From Methanocaldococcus lauensis (GTDB lineage: Archaea; AGJL01; Methanococci; Methanococcales; Methanocaldococcaceae): a stretch of 24,000 nucleotides of DNA. The translations under genes were made by a program, and so were the position numbers. Below, piece by piece: positions 4,141 through 23,817 of the stretch. The stretch lies in contig NZ_LR792632.1 of the NCBI RefSeq assembly GCF_902827225.1, positions 119,030 to 143,029 of the forward strand, read 5' to 3'. The stretch's first letter is position 1. Each line of letters begins with the position of its first letter. The notes beneath the pieces are model-generated. The model worked only from the letters and a program-made list of their open reading frames with translations, had not been told where the DNA came from and made no database searches.

Positions 4141-5276
4141 ATTTCCATCCCCTTAGGGGTCTGAGTTTTAAACCCATAGGGGGCTCTGCCCCCTATTAGT
4201 ATACCCCCGAATATTTGCCTTTTTGTTTAATTTTAGATATCCCGAACCATAGGGCTCCGCCCTATTGGGATACCCGGGATGCATTGCTTCGCTAACGCTC
4301 AGCAATGCATCTTAAATTAAAATCATTTTCCCTTAGGGGTCTGATTTTAGACTACACAGTTTCAGGACATATTGACAAAATAAAACTAACCTTTCCATCC
4401 CCTTAGGGGTCTGATTTTAGGCATTTAAACTTCATTTTCCCTCACCTTTGCCCTTGTTGTTTCCATCCCCTTAGGGGTCTGATTTTAGACCGTAACTAAC
4501 TTATCAAACCAAAACTTAAAGATTTATTGTTTCCATCCCCTTAGGGGTCTGATTTTAGACTTATGAAAACGGGATAACATATCTGAACAATACTTAGTTT
4601 CCATCCCCCTAGGGGTCTGATTTTAGACTGAGCATAATGTAAAAATCGAAGAAATTAAAAATAACTTAGAAGAATGTTTCCATCCCCTTAGGGGTCTGAT
4701 TTTAGACGCTGGATATGATATGGAGACGTTAGAAATTGTCGATGTTTCCATCCCCTTAGGGGTCTGATTTTAGACATATATAAATTCATTAATATATTCG
4801 GATAATAAAAAAAGTTTCCATCCCCTTAGGGGTCTGATTTTAGACAAGTTATAAAAGAAGTTAGAGAGATTAAAAAAGAGGTGTTTCCATCCCCTTAGAG
4901 GTCTGATTTTAGACTTTTATTTTACAATTTTTTTAGGGGGGCATTATGTTTTTGTTTCCATCCCCTTAGGGGTCTGATTTTAGACCAAGCAGGCGACACT
5001 TCAACGAGTTCGTGTAAACTTAGTTTCCATCCCCTTAGGGGTCTGATTTTAGACAGAAATAAGAAAAATCATAAGAGAAAGTATAAAAGAAGCATTAGAA
5101 GGTTTCCATCCCCTTAGGGGTCTGATTTTAGACGAAAGCATAAAGAGAATTCCAAAAGGAATTTGGGAATTTTTGTTTCCATCCCCTTAGGGGTCTGATT
5201 TTAGACATTTTTCTTTTTAGTTTCTACATATCCATATCTTTTTAGTTTCCATCCCCTTAGGGGTCTGATTTTAGAC
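4141..5276 (-). CRISPR. CRISPR array A: 13 conserved 32-nt repeats plus 3 decayed trailer repeats
   Basis: The repeat reads GTTTCCATCCCCTTAGGGGTCTGATTTTAGAC on the plus strand. Copies start at 4391, 4459, 4529, 4597, 4676, 4744, 4814, 4883, 4954, 5023, 5102, 5175 and 5245. The 12 spacers between them are unique and 36-47 nt long. Point variants occur in the repeats at 4391, 4597 and 4883. Decayed repeats lie at 4141-4173, about 4208-4239 and 4325-4352. Strand call: decay is at the low-coordinate end, and the reverse complement ends in ..GGAUGGAAAC, which resembles the AUUGAAAC-type 8-nt crRNA 5' handle. Confidence 0.95.
4174..4311. repeat. Two hairpin elements and one 10-bp-stem palindrome inside the decayed trailer of array A
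   Basis: 4174-4208 is CCATAGGGGGC-TCT-GCCCCCTATTAGTATACCCCC. 4238-4278 is TATCCCGAACCATAGGGC-TCC-GCCCTATTGGGATACCCGGG. 4278-4311 is GATGCATTGC-(TTCGCTAACGCTCA)-GCAATGCATC. Confidence 0.85.
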
Positions 5277-5640
5277 AGGGCATAATTTTTTGAGATTAAG
5301 GACTAAAATTACTTTATTATGCTTCTTTGTTGGGGGGTTATAGTTTGGAGGGTCAGTAACCCTTGTTATTTATATACCTCCGAACTTATATATAAACTTT
5401 TCTATTTTTATTTATTAGTTTAAAAATTCTTTAAATTTTTATTATTAACTTATTTATCGGGGAAAATTGAAGATAAAAATAAATTACTAAAATCTCCTAA
5501 AAATCTCAATAATTTAATAAAACCAAATACTCAAATTAATCAAAATAGAAGACCCTTCGAAATTTGATAAAATCTTTTAAAATTTAAAAATTTCAAATTA
5601 AATCCCTCCAAATCAAAAAATAAAAATTTTTAGCGAGGGA
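5277..5640 (-). promoter_or_regulatory. Leader of CRISPR array A with a candidate TATA box
   Basis: AT-rich non-coding DNA flanks the best-conserved repeat. On the minus strand TTTATATATA (complement of 5387-5396) lies about 110 nt from the first repeat. A degenerate member of the hairpin family sits at about 5332-5383 (GGAGGGT-CAGTA-ACCCTT..TATATACCTCCGAA). The outer boundary is uncertain. Confidence 0.55.
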
Positions 5641-5689
5641 AAATATCTAAATGGAACTGCTATTAAATCGAAGATGTGGTTTCTTTAAA

Positions 5690-5835
5690 CCCCGATTGCC
5701 AGCCGATGAACTTAGGAGGCTGGAAGGTTCTTCGCTACAATTTCTTCCAGTAGCGGAGAACCAGAACGGTCTGTCTCCGTTCAGCCTGGAAGTCCAATGA
5801 ACTTATGGCAGAGAGATTGGCATTCTCGATGAAAT
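5690..5835 (+). ncRNA. GC-rich structured RNA candidate of unknown family
   Basis: This is an isolated GC-rich island in AT-rich non-coding DNA. One hairpin pairs 5726-5738 (GGTTCTTCGCTAC) with 5750-5762 (GTAGCGGAGAACC) over 13 bp; it contains one pair that is U-G on the plus strand but A-C on the minus strand. A second hairpin pairs 5764-5769 with 5777-5782 (GAACGG/CCGTTC). CCAGCC at 5699-5704 pairs with GGCTGG at 5718-5723. The motif CCRATGAACTTAKGG is duplicated at 5703-5716 and 5794-5808. The strand call is weak. Confidence 0.4.
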
Positions 5836-5932
5836 TTCCATAGATATCGGTTTATATAAATTAAGTTGTTAAATGCTATAATATGCTATGGAAATGGAAA
5901 ACAGTCTCCGTTACTATTCGTTCTGTATATGT

Positions 5933-18445: not shown

Positions 18446-18573
18446 GTTTATTAAAATAAGGATGGAAACCTGTATAAAAATAAAAATAATTAAAAAAAGC
18501 AAGCTTAATATGGGAGGTATACCAATAGGAGGGTGGAACCCTCCTATGGGTTTATTAAAATAAGGATGAAAAC
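18446..18573 (+). repeat. Two 24-nt mini-repeats (deletion derivatives of the 37-nt class B CRISPR repeat) flanking an 80-nt segment with a hairpin element
   Basis: GTTTATTAAAATAAGGATGGAAAC at 18446-18469 and GTTTATTAAAATAAGGATGAAAAC at 18550-18573. Hairpin element GGGAGGTATACCAATAGGAGGGT-GGA-ACCCTCCTATGGG at 18512-18550. Confidence 0.8.
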
Positions 18574-18596
18574 AGTGTAATAAGATAGAAAAATGA

Positions 18597-18821: not shown

Positions 18822-19487
18822 GTGCAAATTCCACTTTTAATAGTTCGTTTAAAAACAGATAAACCACTTAAAAAATCACAAACACCATTTTTGAGAGGTT
18901 ATATTTTAAATATATTTGGTAAAGAAAATTATGTGGAGTTGCATAATCATAGCGGGAATGGTTTTGTCTATACCTATCCAAAAATACAGTATAAAATCAT
19001 TAGTGGAGATGCTGTTTTAATTGGTATAAAAGAAGGAATAAACATTTTGGGAGAGATTATTTTAGACATTAGAGAGTTGAATTTGAAAGGGGAAGTTTAT
19101 AAGGTTGTAAATGGTTATGCAAAGGTTAAATTTGAAGAATTTGGAGTTGCTGATGAGATGATAAAATATAAGTTTATCTCTCCATGGATTGCTTTGAATG
19201 AGAAAAATTATTTAAAATATAAAGAGTTGGATGATGAAGGAAAAAAAGAACTGTTAGAAAGGATTTTAGTTGGAAATGTTTTGTCAATGAGTAAGTATTT
19301 AAATTACACTGTTGAAGAAAAACTAAAAGCAGAGTTTTTAAAATTTAATGATTTAGTTGTTAAATACAAAGGCAATAAGTTTATTGGCTTTTTTGGAGAA
19401 TTTTTAATTAACTTTAATATTCCAAATTATTTAGGAATTGGTAGAAAAGTTTCTAAGGGCTTTGGAAGTGTTGTTAGAATACCATAG
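18822..19487 (+). CDS. cas6b: CRISPR RNA endonuclease Cas6b-like
   Basis: ..[18 protein letters not shown] (H-x-H)..YTYPKIQYK.. and the C-terminal glycine-rich loop [13 protein letters not shown]. The GTG at 18822 is preceded by GGTGATATT, the same box used by cas3 (GGTGATATT-ATG). The ORF track instead starts at an upstream ATG (18639) inside the in-frame remnant. Confidence 0.7.
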
Positions 19488-19531
19488 ATAGGACTTTGCT
19501 TCCTTTATTGGCATATATTTCTATTTTTTTA

Positions 19532-19568
19532 ATTTGTATCCTTGTTTTAATGGACTACCTATTCAAAC
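19532..19568 (-). repeat. Solitary class B CRISPR repeat (37 nt, 5 mismatches to the copy at 21192-21228)
   Basis: ATTTGTATCCTTGTTTTAATGGACTACCTATTCAAAC compared with GTTTCCATCCTTGTTTTAATGGACTACCGATTTAAAC. Confidence 0.8.
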
Positions 19569-19805
19569 CCTTACAACTATTGCTTATTTTATACTCAAAC
19601 TCCTATATATAATTTTCTTTTTTTAGGTGAATTTTCTGACTGCCTATTTATCAAACCATTTATAATCTTAAAATTCCTTACGGAATTTTAAAACTTATTC
19701 GCTACGCTCATAAGAAGTAAGAAAGATTATGCAATAATTTTATAAATAAAATGCACAAATTGTAAAGAAAAAAATTTCAATAAAATGAAAATATTGTTTT
19801 TATAT
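19569..19805 (-). promoter_or_regulatory. Leader copy a (paralog of the leader at 21229-21410), carrying a 48-nt double-hairpin insertion
   Basis: It aligns by eye with 21229-21410 over most positions (..CAACTATTGCTTATTYTATAYTCAAACTCCTATATA.., ..TTTTCTGACTGCCT.., ..GTAAGAAAG.., ..TATAAATAAAATGCACAA..). The segment 19666-19713 is absent from copy b. Confidence 0.7.
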
Positions 19806-19886: not shown

Positions 19887-20384
19887 CTAAATCTTTGGGA
19901 AATACTTATATTTATCCCCCTCTCGTTCCCCAATCTTTTTTAAATGCCTTAAAATATTTTCAAAGCCTTTAACATTTTGAAATTCAACAATATTTAATAA
20001 ATATTGAATTTTATTAGCGTATTCTTTAGCATCATTTACTTCTTTTATTGTTATTTTATGAATAATGTTATAATCTGAAAGTTTTCTTAAATTGTGGAGA
20101 TTGTATAACATATTGGATATTTCCATTAATTCTTGACTTTTTATTATCTTTGAGAGCTTGTATAAGTAAATTCTAATTATTTTATGAACTAATCCAGATG
20201 TGTAATATTTTTCAAGTTCTTCTCTTTTATCTATATCCCATATAATCTCTCTAAGAGTTAAAAAGATTGAATAATAGTATCTTCCAATTGCAGTTCTATA
20301 TTTTCCTTCTTTTGGAAGTGTTTCAAAGTTAGGAAGTTTTTCAGCAATTTCTTTAAATTCATCTACATTAAATTTTTTATTCAT
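19887..20384 (-). CDS. HEPN-domain protein (classical HEPN/UPF0332-like), putative toxin
   Basis: ..YRTAIGRYYYSIFLTLREII.. and ..LHNLRKLSDYN.. resemble the two conserved helices of the classical HEPN domain (R..DY). The start overlaps the upstream gene by 8 nt (ATGAATAA). Confidence 0.55.
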   Translation of the reverse strand: MNKKFNVDEFKEIAEKLPNFETLPKEGKYRTAIGRYYYSIFLTLREIIWDIDKREELEKYYTSGLVHKIIRIYLYKLSKIIKSQELMEISNMLYNLHNLRKLSDYNIIHKITIKEVNDAKEYANKIQYLLNIVEFQNVKGFENILRHLKKIGEREGDKYKYFPKI

Positions 20385-20763
20385 TGTATTCCCTCATAAT
20401 AATTACTGCATTATAAAGAGGGGCATCCTCAAATTTAGAATCTATGAGAGAATACAACTTATTTTCAATTATAATTTTTTCATTTGAATCAATATCTTTA
20501 ACCAAAACACAAATTATGTTCATTTCATCATCTAAATCGTAATCTAATAATATACTAAAATTTAAATTTTTATGATATTTCTTTAAATACTTTTCAACAT
20601 ACTCAGCAATTTCAAAGGCAATATTTTTATTTTTTGAATATTTTTCAAATAATTTGGTTTTTTTAAATTTCTTTTTTAATGCTTCTTTTTTTAAAATCTC
20701 TATTGCCTCTTTTTTTGATATTAAAGCAGGAAGTTCTAAAGTTACCTTAACTTTAGATTTCAC
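20377..20763 (-). CDS. HEPN-associated partner protein with an RHH-like N-terminus and no recognisable nucleotidyltransferase motif
   Basis: The GTG start is preceded by GGTGATACT. The N-terminus KVKVTLELPALISKKEAIEILKKEAL fits a beta-strand plus helix. There is no G[SG]..DxD minimal-nucleotidyltransferase (MNT) signature. It is translationally coupled to the HEPN gene. Confidence 0.45.
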   Translation of the reverse strand: MKSKVKVTLELPALISKKEAIEILKKEALKKKFKKTKLFEKYSKNKNIAFEIAEYVEKYLKKYHKNLNFSILLDYDLDDEMNIICVLVKDIDSNEKIIIENKLYSLIDSKFEDAPLYNAVIIMREYNE

Positions 20764-20836: not shown

Positions 20837-21228
20837 AAGTTTTTTATTAATCCATAGAAAGGCAAAACCTCCTCTATTGGAAATTCCCCCTTTTTAGAAA
20901 AACTATTTTTTATCCTTGTTTTAATAAACCCATAGGAGGGTTTCACCCTCCTATTGGTATACCTCCCATATTAAGCTTGCTTTTTTTAATTTAGGGTATA
21001 GGGCGGAGCCCCCTATTGGTATACCCCCAGAGTATTCTATTTTTTATTTGTTATTCCTTGTTTTAATAAACCCATAGGGGCTTCGCCCCTATTGGTATAC
21101 CCCATTTAATTTTAGTTATTATCCTTATTTTAATAGACTATCGATTCAAACATCCAATGAGAGCAGTACAAATGCATCCTGATCCCAACAAGTTTCCATC
21201 CTTGTTTTAATGGACTACCGATTTAAAC
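20837..21228 (-). CRISPR. CRISPR array B, largely decayed: two 37-nt repeats, then mini-repeat/hairpin units
   Basis: Repeat B1 is at 21192-21228 and B2 at 21115-21151 (7 mismatches), separated by a 40-nt spacer. Leftward lie mini-repeats at 21050-21071 and 20911-20929, with remnants near 20981-20990 and 20837-20850. Each is followed by a hairpin element (21071-21103, 20994-21028, 20929-20967, 20852-20890). Confidence 0.75.
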
Positions 21229-21410
21229 ACTACCAACTATTGCTTATTCTATATTCAAACTCCTATATAAATCTTTCTTTTAACACTCGATTTTTCTGAC
21301 TGCCTGATTATCAAAGTATTTATAAGAGTAAGAAAGTTTGTGCTAACTATTTATAAATAAAATGCACAACCACGAACAAAAATCTCAATAATTAAAAGTT
21401 ATTTTATATC
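21229..21410 (-). promoter_or_regulatory. Leader copy b of array B with a candidate TATA box
   Basis: Adjacent to the best-conserved class B repeat. On the minus strand TTTATATA (complement of 21264-21271) lies about 40 nt upstream of the repeat. It is a paralog of 19569-19805. Confidence 0.65.
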
Positions 21411-21661: not shown

Positions 21662-23056
21662 ATGCTACTATCTCATCCAAATTATCCTTTAAAAAGTCAT
21701 CTGATTAATACAAAAAATAGAGCATTGGAAAAATACAAACCTCCAAAATTAAAATATTTTGAAGGAGAAATAATAAGAGAAATTTTAAAAATCATAACAT
21801 TATCACACGATTTTGGAAAAGCAACAATTTACTTTCAAAAATACATTAGAGGAGAAAAAGTCAAAAATTCTTTAAAAAAATATTCTACAATTTCATTTTT
21901 ATTAACAAACTATGTAATTGAAGAGTTTCTAAAGAATTACAACATAAAAAATAACTATTATCAACTATTTTCTTTGTGTGTTAAAAATCACCACTCCTTT
22001 ATAAGCAATCCAATACACGACTTAGGTAGTGTAGAGGAAAATAAAGACTTACTAAAAGAGCAGTTTAACTCATTGGACATTGATTTTATAAACAATATTT
22101 TGAAAGAAAATAATTTACCAGTAATTGAAGATGACTTTTCTAATATCTTAGAAAAATTTTATAATTTAGAGGATATTTATGAAGATTTGTATGATGAAAA
22201 TAATGAGCTAAAATATGAGTTCTATTTACTCTACCTATATTTATTTTCGTTGTTAATATGTTCTGACAAAGAAGATGCAATATTTAAAGGTAGAATTGTA
22301 AAAAGCTATCCAACACTACCATATAGCATTGAAAATTATATCAAAAATCTCCCAAAGAAAAATGACATTGACTATCTAAGAACAAAAATGTTTTTTGAAA
22401 TAGATAAAAAGGTTGATGAAATTGATTTGAATCATAGAATTTACTCTTTGAATGCTCCAACTGGAATGGGAAAAACTTTAACTATCTTCAATTTTGCATT
22501 AAAATTGGCTAATAGAATCAAAAGAGAAAAAGGCATTAACATGAGAATAATTTATTGCCTACCATTTTTAAGTATCATAGACCAAAATTATGCTGTTTTA
22601 GAAAAAGTATTAGAAAAAACTTTAAAAAATCAAATAACATCTGATATTCTTTTAAAACATCACCACTTATCAGATATTTCTTATAAAATAGAGGAGGAAG
22701 AAGTAGATGTTGATGAATCTCTCCATTTAATAGAAACATGGAACTCAAAAATAATAACTACAACTTTTATGCAACTTTTTTATAGTATATTTTCTAACAA
22801 AAACAAAAATTTAAAAAAATTTTATGCATTAAGTAATTCAATAATTATCTTAGATGAGATACAGGCAATTCCTTATAAATATTGGCATGCGATAAATAAA
22901 ATCTTCAAATTTTTGGCAGAGGAATATAATATTTACTTTATATTATGCACAGCAACACTTCCAATGATTTTTGAAGATAATATAGAGCTCTTAGATAATA
23001 AAGAAGAATACTTCAACAAAATGAATAGAACAAAAAAGAGATTTATAATGCATTAA
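21662..23056 (+). CDS. cas3: Cas3 part 1: HD nuclease domain and helicase motifs I-III
   Basis: HD motif ..LSHDFGKAT.., also ..NHHSF.. and ..CSDKEDA... Helicase motif I NAPTGMGKT, motif II ILDEIQ, motif III CTATLP. GGTGATATT-ATG start. It ends 5 codons after an A_AAA_AAG heptamer. Confidence 0.85.
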   Translation: MLLSHPNYPLKSHLINTKNRALEKYKPPKLKYFEGEIIREILKIITLSHDFGKATIYFQKYIRGEKVKNSLKKYSTISFLLTNYVIEEFLKNYNIKNNYYQLFSLCVKNHHSFISNPIHDLGSVEENKDLLKEQFNSLDIDFINNILKENNLPVIEDDFSNILEKFYNLEDIYEDLYDENNELKYEFYLLYLYLFSLLICSDKEDAIFKGRIVKSYPTLPYSIENYIKNLPKKNDIDYLRTKMFFEIDKKVDEIDLNHRIYSLNAPTGMGKTLTIFNFALKLANRIKREKGINMRIIYCLPFLSIIDQNYAVLEKVLEKTLKNQITSDILLKHHHLSDISYKIEEEEVDVDESLHLIETWNSKIITTTFMQLFYSIFSNKNKNLKKFYALSNSIIILDEIQAIPYKYWHAINKIFKFLAEEYNIYFILCTATLPMIFEDNIELLDNKEEYFNKMNRTKKRFIMH

Positions 23057-23817
23057 AAGAAATGGATTTAGAGGGAGATTTTTACTATTTATCAACAAAC
23101 ATCTATCCAAAAGAGAGATTAAATAGGATTAAAGAAATAAACAGAAATAAGAATAGGAAGATTATTGTTTCAACTCAATTAATTGAGGCTGGAGTTGATA
23201 TAAGCGTTGATGTGATTTATAGAGATATTGCTCCTTTTGATGCTATAAATCAAACTGCTGGAAGGAGACATAATGAAGGTAGAAGGGGAATAGTAAATAT
23301 TGTTAAGTTAGTGGATGATAAAGGAAGGAAATATGCCTCTTACATTTATGAAAAGCATCTTATAACTAAGACAGAGGAATTGTTAAATAAGTATGATGTT
23401 ATTGATGAAAGAGAATTTTTAAAATTAAACATCAAATATTTCCAAAAATTGAGGAATTATAAGGACAAATCAAAAGAAATCTTAAAAATAATTGAGAACT
23501 TTAAATATGATGAAATTAATAATAAATTTAAGCTAATTGAAAATCCTCCATCTATTGACTTGTTTGTTTGTGTTGAAGATGAAGCAGAAAAGGTTTGGGG
23601 GGAATATAAGACAATAATGGAAATAAAAAATATTTATGAAAGAAGAAAAAAATTTTTAGAAATAAAAAAGAAGTTTTATGAGTATGTTATAAGTGTTCCA
23701 GAGTATAGTATAAAAGGAAAGAATATTTTATTTAACCATTTGGATAAAATTGATGAAAAATATTATGATAGAGAAACGGGGTTTAAGATTGTTGAAGATA
23801 ATACACTAATACTATAA
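23029..23817 (+). CDS. cas3: Cas3 part 2: helicase C-terminal half, in the -1 frame relative to part 1
   Basis: The frame is open from 23029, and the first ATG is at 23062. ..VSTQLIEAGVDISVDVIYRDIAP.. is motif V and ..NQTAGRRHNEGRRG.. is motif VI. Homology continues across the junction if the reading shifts -1 at 23032-23038. Confidence 0.8.
   Translation, partial: NKKEIYNALKEMDLEGDFYYLSTNIYPKERLNRIKEINRNKNRKIIVSTQLIEAGVDISVDVIYRDIAPFDAINQTAGRRHNEGRRGIVNIVKLVDDKGRKYASYIYEKHLITKTEELLNKYDVIDEREFLKLNIKYFQKLRNYKDKSKEILKIIENFKYDEINNKFKLIENPPSIDLFVCVEDEAEKVWGEYKTIMEIKNIYERRKKFLEIKKKFYEYVISVPEYSIKGKNILFNHLDKIDEKYYDRETGFKIVEDNTLIL

Follow-up and report, generated by a model that had tools for sequence, protein, structure and literature searches.

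The window, that is, the whole 24-kb stretch of DNA analysed here, is AT-rich and belongs to Methanocaldococcus, in the group formed by M. villosus, M. infernus, M. indicus and sp. 28A; its F420-ligase-like protein shares 96% identity with a protein of MAG contig JALWEP010000019 and 87% with its sp. 28A counterpart. It holds two CRISPR loci, arrays A and B, both transcribed from the minus strand. The intact part of array A (4391–5276) contains 13 repeats, assigned to the Rfam family CRISPR-DR39, with the leader to its right (approximately 5280–5600). Two further minus-strand copies of the repeat flank a block of hairpins: the outermost copy on the left (4142–4173; TTTCCATCCCCTTAGGGGTCTGAGTTTTAAAC on the plus strand; CRISPR-DR39, 35 bits) and a degenerate copy on the right (4326–4352) in which the ATGGAAAC handle has been lost. 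Array B is a stub, with a CRISPR-DR7 match below the Rfam threshold. Its remainder (21121–21228, minus strand) comprises a degenerate repeat (21121–21151), a 40-nt spacer and a full 37-nt repeat (21192–21228), and two short minus-strand fragments of its repeat are found at 20914–20929 (CCTTGTTTTAATAAAC, with a degenerate handle) and 21056–21071. An inverted fragment of array B (18446–18575, minus strand) is homologous to 20914–20990 and to a locus in another genome, L036 (L numbers denote loci in other genomes throughout); it consists of a short repeat (18552–18575), a hairpin element, an AT-rich stretch and another short repeat (18446–18469).

The leader of array B lies at the right (approximately 21229–21400), and a second copy of it is present at 19569–19760. 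The repeat and leader occur together as a unit twice, with approximately 83% identity (19538–19760 and 21192–21370), and between the duplicates are two small unannotated minus-strand genes (19887–20763) without a Pfam hit. This duplication, together with the inverted array fragment, is evidence of local rearrangement. The CRISPR loci are adjoined by cas6b (Pfam Cas6b_N and Cas6b_C), whose 282-aa ORF has an over-extended start as judged from its homologues, and by a split cas3, present as two ORFs (21662–23056 and 23062–23817) that encode the DEAD/ResIII part and the Helicase_C/Cas3 C-terminal part. Taken with the very small size of array B and the rearranged copies of repeat and leader, the split cas3 suggests a decaying type I-B locus. 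Between the array A leader and ilvD, a GC-rich segment of approximately 190 nt (5650–5840) folds as RNA with z = −4.2 on the plus strand relative to shuffles, and is conserved at approximately 80–85% identity in sp. 28A (L005) and, next to the orthologous leader, in L031. No Rfam family matched this segment, and it is a candidate unannotated structured RNA.

The hairpin element considered here, H1, has the frame CCATAGG–stem–loop–stem–CCTATTGGTATACC. Its 14-mer is found with at most one mismatch at 4192, 4261, 18516 (minus strand), 20950, 21012 and 21088 in the 24-kb window; at up to three mismatches it is matched eight times against 1.57 expected, and eight matches were reached in none of 100 shuffles, so that the conserved frame described in the original prediction is well founded. 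Six copies are solid: 4174–4208, 4247–4275, 18512–18549 (minus strand), 20930–20967, 20994–21028 and 21072–21103. Each of the six folds into a hairpin (z-scores of DNA folding, −1.5 to −4.9), and all of them adjoin CRISPR repeats or repeat fragments, either at leader-distal array ends or in the inverted array fragment. Eight copies had been proposed, and the other two (20852–20890, plus strand, and approximately 5332–5383) stay at chance level in the covariance model (E of about 1.2), which is not significant alone; they are possible decayed relatives of H1, the former resembling the sister form H1′ (CATAGAGG..CCTCTATTGCTATACTCC).

A decayed H1′-like sequence that resembles 20852–20890 overlaps the stop codon of cas6b (19482–19517, plus strand) and supplies CCA TAG. 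The last codon and the stop of Cas6b (...VVRIP*) are drawn from it, and the Cas6b of M. infernus ends in ...VVRVEE*. A matching decayed sequence is present at the cas6b end in L036 (approximately 113–155), and in L055, from a MAG with a 95% identical Cas6b, the contig breaks exactly at this sequence. The region at 5332–5383 coincides with a motif of the array A leader, GGAGGGTCAnTnACCCyTGTTATTTATATACCTCCGAA, that occurs in three genomes (the window, L031 at approximately 470–510 and L046 at approximately 1485–1530); its likeness to H1 is loose (stem GGAGGGT, tail TATACCTCC) and not significant under the covariance model.

At the end of array A, the hairpin block 4174–4314 is a plus-strand composite of H1, a T-rich linker, a second H1 and a different hairpin module, H2. 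The first H1 (4174–4208; stem ATAGGGGGC/GCCCCCTAT; covariance model score 53.9 bits) is followed by the AT-rich T-tract linker (4209–4235; GAATATTTGCCTTTTTGTTTAATTTTA), and this H1 subtype has the same linker behind it in L031, L029, L042 and L044. The second is a long form (4236–4275, 52.2 bits) with an outer arm GATATCCC..GGGATACCC starting at 4236 and its core at 4247–4275, and the H2 hairpin behind it (4276–4314; GGGATGCATTGC..GCAATGCATCTTA; z = −6.6) is the module that usually accompanies H1 at dispersed sites. The copy at 4236–4275 and its orthologue in L031 share the outer arms GRTATCCC and GGGATAC, but the inner 23 nt enclosed by them are reverse-complemented in one relative to the other; the palindrome has been flipped in place, a flip-flop inversion. 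In array B, two plus-strand copies have the stems ATAGGAGGGT/ACCCTCCTAT (20930–20967; 48.8 bits; z = −4.9) and ATAGGGGC/GCCCCTAT (21072–21103; 54.5 bits), the latter with the same junction and element in L028 and L040. Between them is a plus-strand variant with an altered 5′ arm (20994–21028; GGGTATAGGGCGGAGCCCCCTATTGGTATACCCCC; 40 bits), and the minus-strand copy of the inverted fragment (18512–18549) also scores 48.8 bits. The conserved 3′ flank, GGTATACC, belongs to this longer outer stem as its 3′ arm; the 5′ arm of the stem is absent in many copies. The description of these elements as filling spacer slots holds only loosely, since the flanking repeat copies are 49, 126 and 152 nt apart and the gaps are not spacer-sized as a rule.

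The stems differ between copies and remain complementary, as had been proposed from the window. When 66 H1 copies from other genomes were aligned to the covariance model, 94.7% of cells paired and five of ten pairs showed changes on both sides; the observed covariation score was reached by none of 500 shuffles, and the signal was destroyed when the 3′ partner was slid. Direct outside-in pairing of 72 copies (the 66 and the six of the window) yielded at least 14 distinct stems, including GGC, GGGC, GGGGC, GGGGT, GGGG, GAGGGT and AGGAGGC, nearly all of them perfectly complementary and only two with a G·T pair. Much of this variation is symmetric lengthening of G/C runs. The hairpin is thus maintained, and the complementarity fits a DNA-level or an RNA-level hairpin equally.

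H1 is spread over genomes of the Methanocaldococcaceae. An exact-pattern scan (CCATAGG N5–25 CCTATTGGTATACC) of one genome per species returned 45 stretches, of which 44 are from Methanocaldococcaceae (sp. 16A, sp. 28A, M. indicus and four MAGs) and the other is a chance match; in the same scan, the exact pattern was not found in M. jannaschii. The covariance model detected 66 H1 copies in 302,601 bases from 44 loci. H1 often occurs as inverted pairs approximately 100 nt apart (L003, L005, L029, L031 and L034), and most copies lie at ordinary gene boundaries, where they are usually fused to a further GC-rich hairpin module: H2 (GGGATGCATTGCC..GGCAATGCCTCTTA), H3 (ACGTCCATTAAGTTGGGGC..GCCCCAATTAATGTCC) or H4 (AAATTTACACCTCTGCC..GGCAGAGGTGT). 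Other repeats are found in the same neighbourhoods. Inside an H3 hairpin at a CRISPR trailer (L007, 2570–2680), a true MITE has been inserted, bounded by perfect 16-bp terminal inverted repeats (TAACCAATTATCAAAG), and an AT-rich hairpin (GATGAAACTTTTTCTAAAAGTTTC) recurs beside H1 in L009, L020, L025, L027 and L032. Rfam 15, searched at the gathering threshold over the whole window and by E-value over both regions, yielded only CRISPR-DR39 and CRISPR-DR7 and no match to H1. The block 4160–4320 had no match among plasmids and phages, and the H1 pattern had none in IMG/VR. In the open literature, the H1 and H2 strings were not found in an archaeal context, a single string match being to an unrelated Plasmodium microarray paper.

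It is exceedingly improbable that the copies are ordinary spacers acquired from one family of viral or plasmid protospacers. Their size is close to that of spacers and they lie between repeats, but dozens of chromosomal copies are situated outside arrays, and the register of the copies relative to the repeat is fixed while the stems vary. An origin in a protospacer family is effectively refuted, as no plasmid, phage or IMG/VR match was obtained.

The flanks of H1 units carry direct repeats. The ungapped flanking direct-repeat score is at least 15 in 26 of 50 clusters, with a 95th percentile of 12 in controls, and with gapped alignment 20 of the 37 non-CRISPR clusters exceed the 99th percentile of controls, the duplications being 21–84 nt long with a median in the mid-40s; a flanking duplication was not detectable in the other 17 of these 37. 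On the left, 11 of 16 inserts start exactly at (C)CATAGG; on the right, inserts end a few A/T-rich bases beyond the second hairpin. Inserts measure 43–133 nt, the usual unit being 45–115 nt. No target motif, ..AAAC or other, was seen at the non-CRISPR insertion junctions. Nor do the units have terminal inverted repeats, the ends CCATAGG... and ...GCCTCTTA not being inverted copies of each other.

Empty sites in relatives, which the original prediction had recommended seeking in orthologous arrays, are available for three non-CRISPR insertions. In a MAG (L026), H1 and H3 are inserted at the start of ribL (FAD synthase) with a duplication of approximately 55 nt that comprises the ribosome-binding site, the ATG and 13 codons; the site is uninterrupted in FS406-22 and two other relatives (91–94% protein identity), and in L026 a 43-aa ORF reads through H1 and H3. 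A second site is filled in sp. 28A by a 98-nt insert with an exact 26-nt duplication and is empty in sp. 16A, the flanks sharing approximately 94% nucleotide identity. The third, a gene-start site with a duplication of approximately 28–35 nt (L016, 3450–3730; L037, 1586–1790; L006, 3860–4230), is filled in sp. 16A and in the distant MAG JAADDS01 and empty in sp. 28A, an arrangement that points either to precise loss by way of the direct repeats or to a site used more than once, an insertion hot spot. Because of these three filled/empty comparisons, H1 units are regarded as target-duplicating insertions. A gene start lies inside the duplication in L006, L016, L022, L026, L037 and L039; hence an intact gene is kept beside a truncated copy that reads into the hairpin. 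A gene end serves as the duplication in one case, hypD in L027, whose 3′ end is present three times (81–381), the copies being separated by the AT-rich hairpin element and by an H2+H1 unit.

These duplications bear on how the units could have been moved. The first hypothesis offered for the window was a small palindromic mobile element inserting 3′ of the ..AAAC end of repeats in the IS200/IS605 manner, and its two halves fared differently: the element is dispersed and mobile as indicated by the three filled/empty pairs, but duplications of 21–84 nt and junctions lacking an ..AAAC motif do not agree with the IS200/IS605 form. A PATE- or REP-type single-strand element moved by an IS200/IS605 TnpA or a RAYT-like HUH enzyme would explain the hairpin ends with conserved flanking bases, the BIME-like clusters in alternating orientation and the sharp 5′ end. 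IS200/IS605 and REP elements, however, make no target duplications, and their existence here excludes peel-and-paste transposition of the IS200/IS605 or RAYT type. The junctions also show no conserved tetra- or pentanucleotide, there is no GTAG/CGTC head, and no Y1 transposase was seen near the copies among 493 clustered ORFs at 44 loci, where no transposase of any kind recurred and only housekeeping orthologues and a paralogous ATPase family did. We consider movement by such enzymes very unlikely.

Integration by the CRISPR adaptation machinery, with Cas1–Cas2 or a relative inserting H1 in repeats and off target, is a similarly faint prospect. It would account for the flanking duplication as a duplicated repeat, as spacer integration yields exactly a repeat–insert–repeat arrangement; single modules are spacer-sized (32–40 nt), the off-target duplications centre on approximately 35–50 nt, near the 30–37 nt of repeats, and H1 abuts the repeat end in several arrays. 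Against this, inserts of 43–133 nt are much longer than spacers, modules stand side by side without intervening repeats, the fixed junction is on the PAM-distal side, and the array copies are all at the trailer although integration occurs at the leader. A fixed ruler, tried as an explanation of the duplications, does not suit the distribution of their lengths, which is too broad (21–84 nt).

Within arrays, the copies have a restricted position and a shared history. Of 52 clusters, 13 have a CRISPR repeat core no more than 150 nt away, so the claim that copies all occur beside CRISPR repeats is true of the window (six of six) but not of the family, in which approximately 75% of clusters are elsewhere; the original description of an undescribed CRISPR-associated element cannot be kept, as the element is not CRISPR-specific. 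Of the two observations that, according to the original prediction, would together refute it, spread through the genome is therefore found, whereas a lack of enrichment beside repeats is not clearly found: 4.1% of the sampled bases are within 150 nt of a repeat core in a sample that is itself biased towards arrays, and in 53 kb fetched for unrelated reasons the sole H1 copy is at an array trailer. With all six window copies and this sole copy at CRISPR loci, H1 may have a true preference for arrays in this lineage. Every array-associated copy is leader-distal, which contradicts the proposal that the hairpins form a protein-binding module of leader–repeat junctions.

The array-associated copies make up approximately three conserved blocks that are common to several species and to paralogous arrays. 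Block A is found in the window, in its orthologue L031 and in L042, with a reduced form in L046. Block B, a short repeat followed by H1, is shared by the window, L004 (sp. 28A), L028, L036 and L040. Block C/D, consisting of a variant repeat, H3, an inverted H1 and a repeat, is found in two MAGs, one of which carries it in three arrays; it is ancestral, because the MAG with three arrays has C-type array repeats but a D-type trailer block. The 13 CRISPR-adjacent clusters trace to approximately three old events and were inherited by the arrays, so that roughly three of approximately 43 insertions are independent events in arrays. This share is presumably close to that of CRISPR in the non-coding DNA of such genomes, an estimate based on M. 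jannaschii. The flanking repeat copies are like the duplications seen elsewhere, with 21 nt of repeat in L040 and L004 and approximately 25 nt in L046; in array A, they span the whole repeat (4142–4173 versus 4326–4352). The insertion signature of the element itself, namely its long duplication, therefore explains why a hairpin appears to occupy a spacer slot. The short repeat may be a 13-nt deletion variant that arose independently of H1 or, equally, a duplicated copy of 21–25 nt.

That the trailer blocks are conserved between species, and among several arrays within one genome, speaks for the hairpins as a functional array end, acting as a 3′ terminator or stabiliser of the pre-crRNA, as a barrier to antisense read-through or as a source of crRNA-like RNA. 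The T-tract behind the H1 subtype at 4174–4208 on the plus strand, and the near-intact ATGGAAAC/ATGAAAAC handles on both sides of H1 in the inverted fragment 18446–18575, point the same way. The same elements are, however, mostly at non-CRISPR sites and none is at a leader–repeat junction, module content varies between orthologous trailers, and the flanking fragments at 20914–21071 have no handle. A function of this kind is improbable in our estimation. The related proposal of structured pseudo-spacers giving rise to crRNA-like RNAs appears unlikely at 20837–21114, judging from the sequence, since no ATGGAAAC handle is left in the repeat fragments that flank the hairpins there.

We consider it likely that H1 is a selfish, non-autonomous mobile hairpin repeat module, similar to REP/BIME elements or MITEs, that has spread across Methanocaldococcaceae. 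The usual unit begins exactly at CCATAGG and runs into a second hairpin module (H2, H3 or H4), and its insertion copies 21–84 nt of the target and leaves the element between two direct copies of the landing site. At ordinary sites, the duplicated piece often contains a ribosome-binding site, a start codon and the first codons, leaving the downstream gene intact, and the long direct repeats would permit precise loss by recombination. With a CRISPR repeat as the target, the product would be repeat–hairpin–repeat and would mimic a hairpin in a spacer slot. Array insertions may survive only in leader-distal positions, where repeats are degenerate, do not recombine with the rest of the array and are dispensable; those in the interior would be purged through repeat–repeat recombination or would be harmful. 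The trailer blocks would then be passed on to descendant and duplicated arrays. Neutral retention is the simplest account of the restriction to trailers, and we infer it along with the selfish, non-functional status of H1.

As for the chemistry of insertion, a trans-acting nuclease making widely staggered cuts is one candidate. The other is a replication-fork route, in which a hairpin-protected 5′ flap would escape FEN1 or a hairpin-stalled polymerase would switch template. Both are proposed because the duplications are variable and the boundary at the foot of the hairpin is sharp. The tail TTGGTATACC is invariant across species, asymmetric and non-palindromic, which implies a sequence-specific protein partner or a host function. 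We put forward, with considerable reserve, the possibility that H1-type units represent an undescribed mode of DNA insertion in archaea, with one precise end, no terminal inverted repeats, no linked transposase and a target duplication of 20–85 bp that is reversible through the direct repeats, carried out by a new widely cutting nuclease or integrase or by a replication-fork process. The length of such a duplication suffices to restore a gene start or reproduce an entire CRISPR repeat, and if this reading were true there would also be a Cas-independent route to repeat–insert–repeat units inside CRISPR arrays.

For CRISPR annotation, odd structured spacers at array ends in Methanococcales should preferably be interpreted as members of a chromosomal repeat family that inserted and were inherited, and not as a CRISPR-specific device. 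The trailer hairpins mark the ancestral trailer and could help to trace the descent of arrays. The small mobile DNA of archaea is poorly understood, and the filled/empty pairs of sp. 16A and sp. 28A, which are close and have complete genomes, would make the mechanism tractable. The signature of H1 transposition, with one precise end, long and variable duplications that regenerate gene starts and apparent precise loss, fits no standard prokaryotic class.

Like Cas1–Cas2 spacer integration, H1 insertion places an insert between two copies of a sequence of approximately 30 nt, but the lengths of the duplication and the insert are not fixed, and H1 is found at the trailer and at ordinary genes; H1 also differs from CRISPR spacers in being multicopy in the chromosome, without a foreign match and in slots of 49–152 nt. 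MITEs such as Sulfolobus SM1–4 are likewise small non-autonomous insertions flanked by target duplications, but H1 units lack terminal inverted repeats, and their duplications are variable (21–84 nt) where those of MITEs are short and fixed. With the IS200/IS605-derived PATEs, H1 shares hairpin-bearing ends and asymmetric, non-inverted termini, whereas PATE insertion takes place 3′ of a fixed short target and creates no duplication, and H1 shows neither feature. The likeness to bacterial REP/BIME/REPIN elements extends to GC-rich imperfect palindromes of 20–40 nt with conserved flanking bases, non-coding and in high copy number, and to mosaics of several hairpin types in alternating orientation. 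H1 is itself a short GC-rich imperfect palindrome in many copies, with clusters of alternating orientation. Bacterial REPs, in contrast, lack the target duplication and are linked to a RAYT gene, and no recurrent transposase-like family was present among the 493 ORFs near H1; moreover, the head of H1 is CCATAGG and its tail TTGGTATACC, in place of the GTAG/CGTC head of REP–RAYT systems. In mitochondria, mobile GC clusters and double-hairpin elements are, like H1, GC-rich double hairpins that spread in an AT-rich genome, including at gene ends; they belong to another host domain, and we know of no description of long target duplications for them. Among the features tested, H1 lacks some that define the MITE, PATE, REP–RAYT and spacer classes. 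A search of the literature on long target duplications, MITEs and hairpin repeats in Methanocaldococcus found nothing specific, and as far as it extended, a long, variable target duplication that restores gene starts is undescribed.

The MJRE elements of M. jannaschii are reportedly palindromic, roughly 100 bp long and mostly extragenic, sometimes lying inside or fused to coding sequence, and neither long target duplications nor a location at CRISPR trailers is said to have been reported for them. They share the host family of H1, and the truncated gene starts that read into H1 are comparable to MJRE fused to coding sequence; the exact H1 pattern, on the other hand, is absent from M. jannaschii in the scan. 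Two articles (PMC2229807; PMC2996958) that cite the original study (Suyama, Lathe & Bork 2005, FEBS Lett 579:5281) describe MJRE1–3, palindromic repetitive elements of M. jannaschii, as having entered protein genes or become fused to them. Compared by description only, MJRE are probably kin to the H1 family. H1 shares with MJRE the features of a multicopy, palindromic and extragenic element of Methanocaldococcus, of which some copies are fused to coding sequence.
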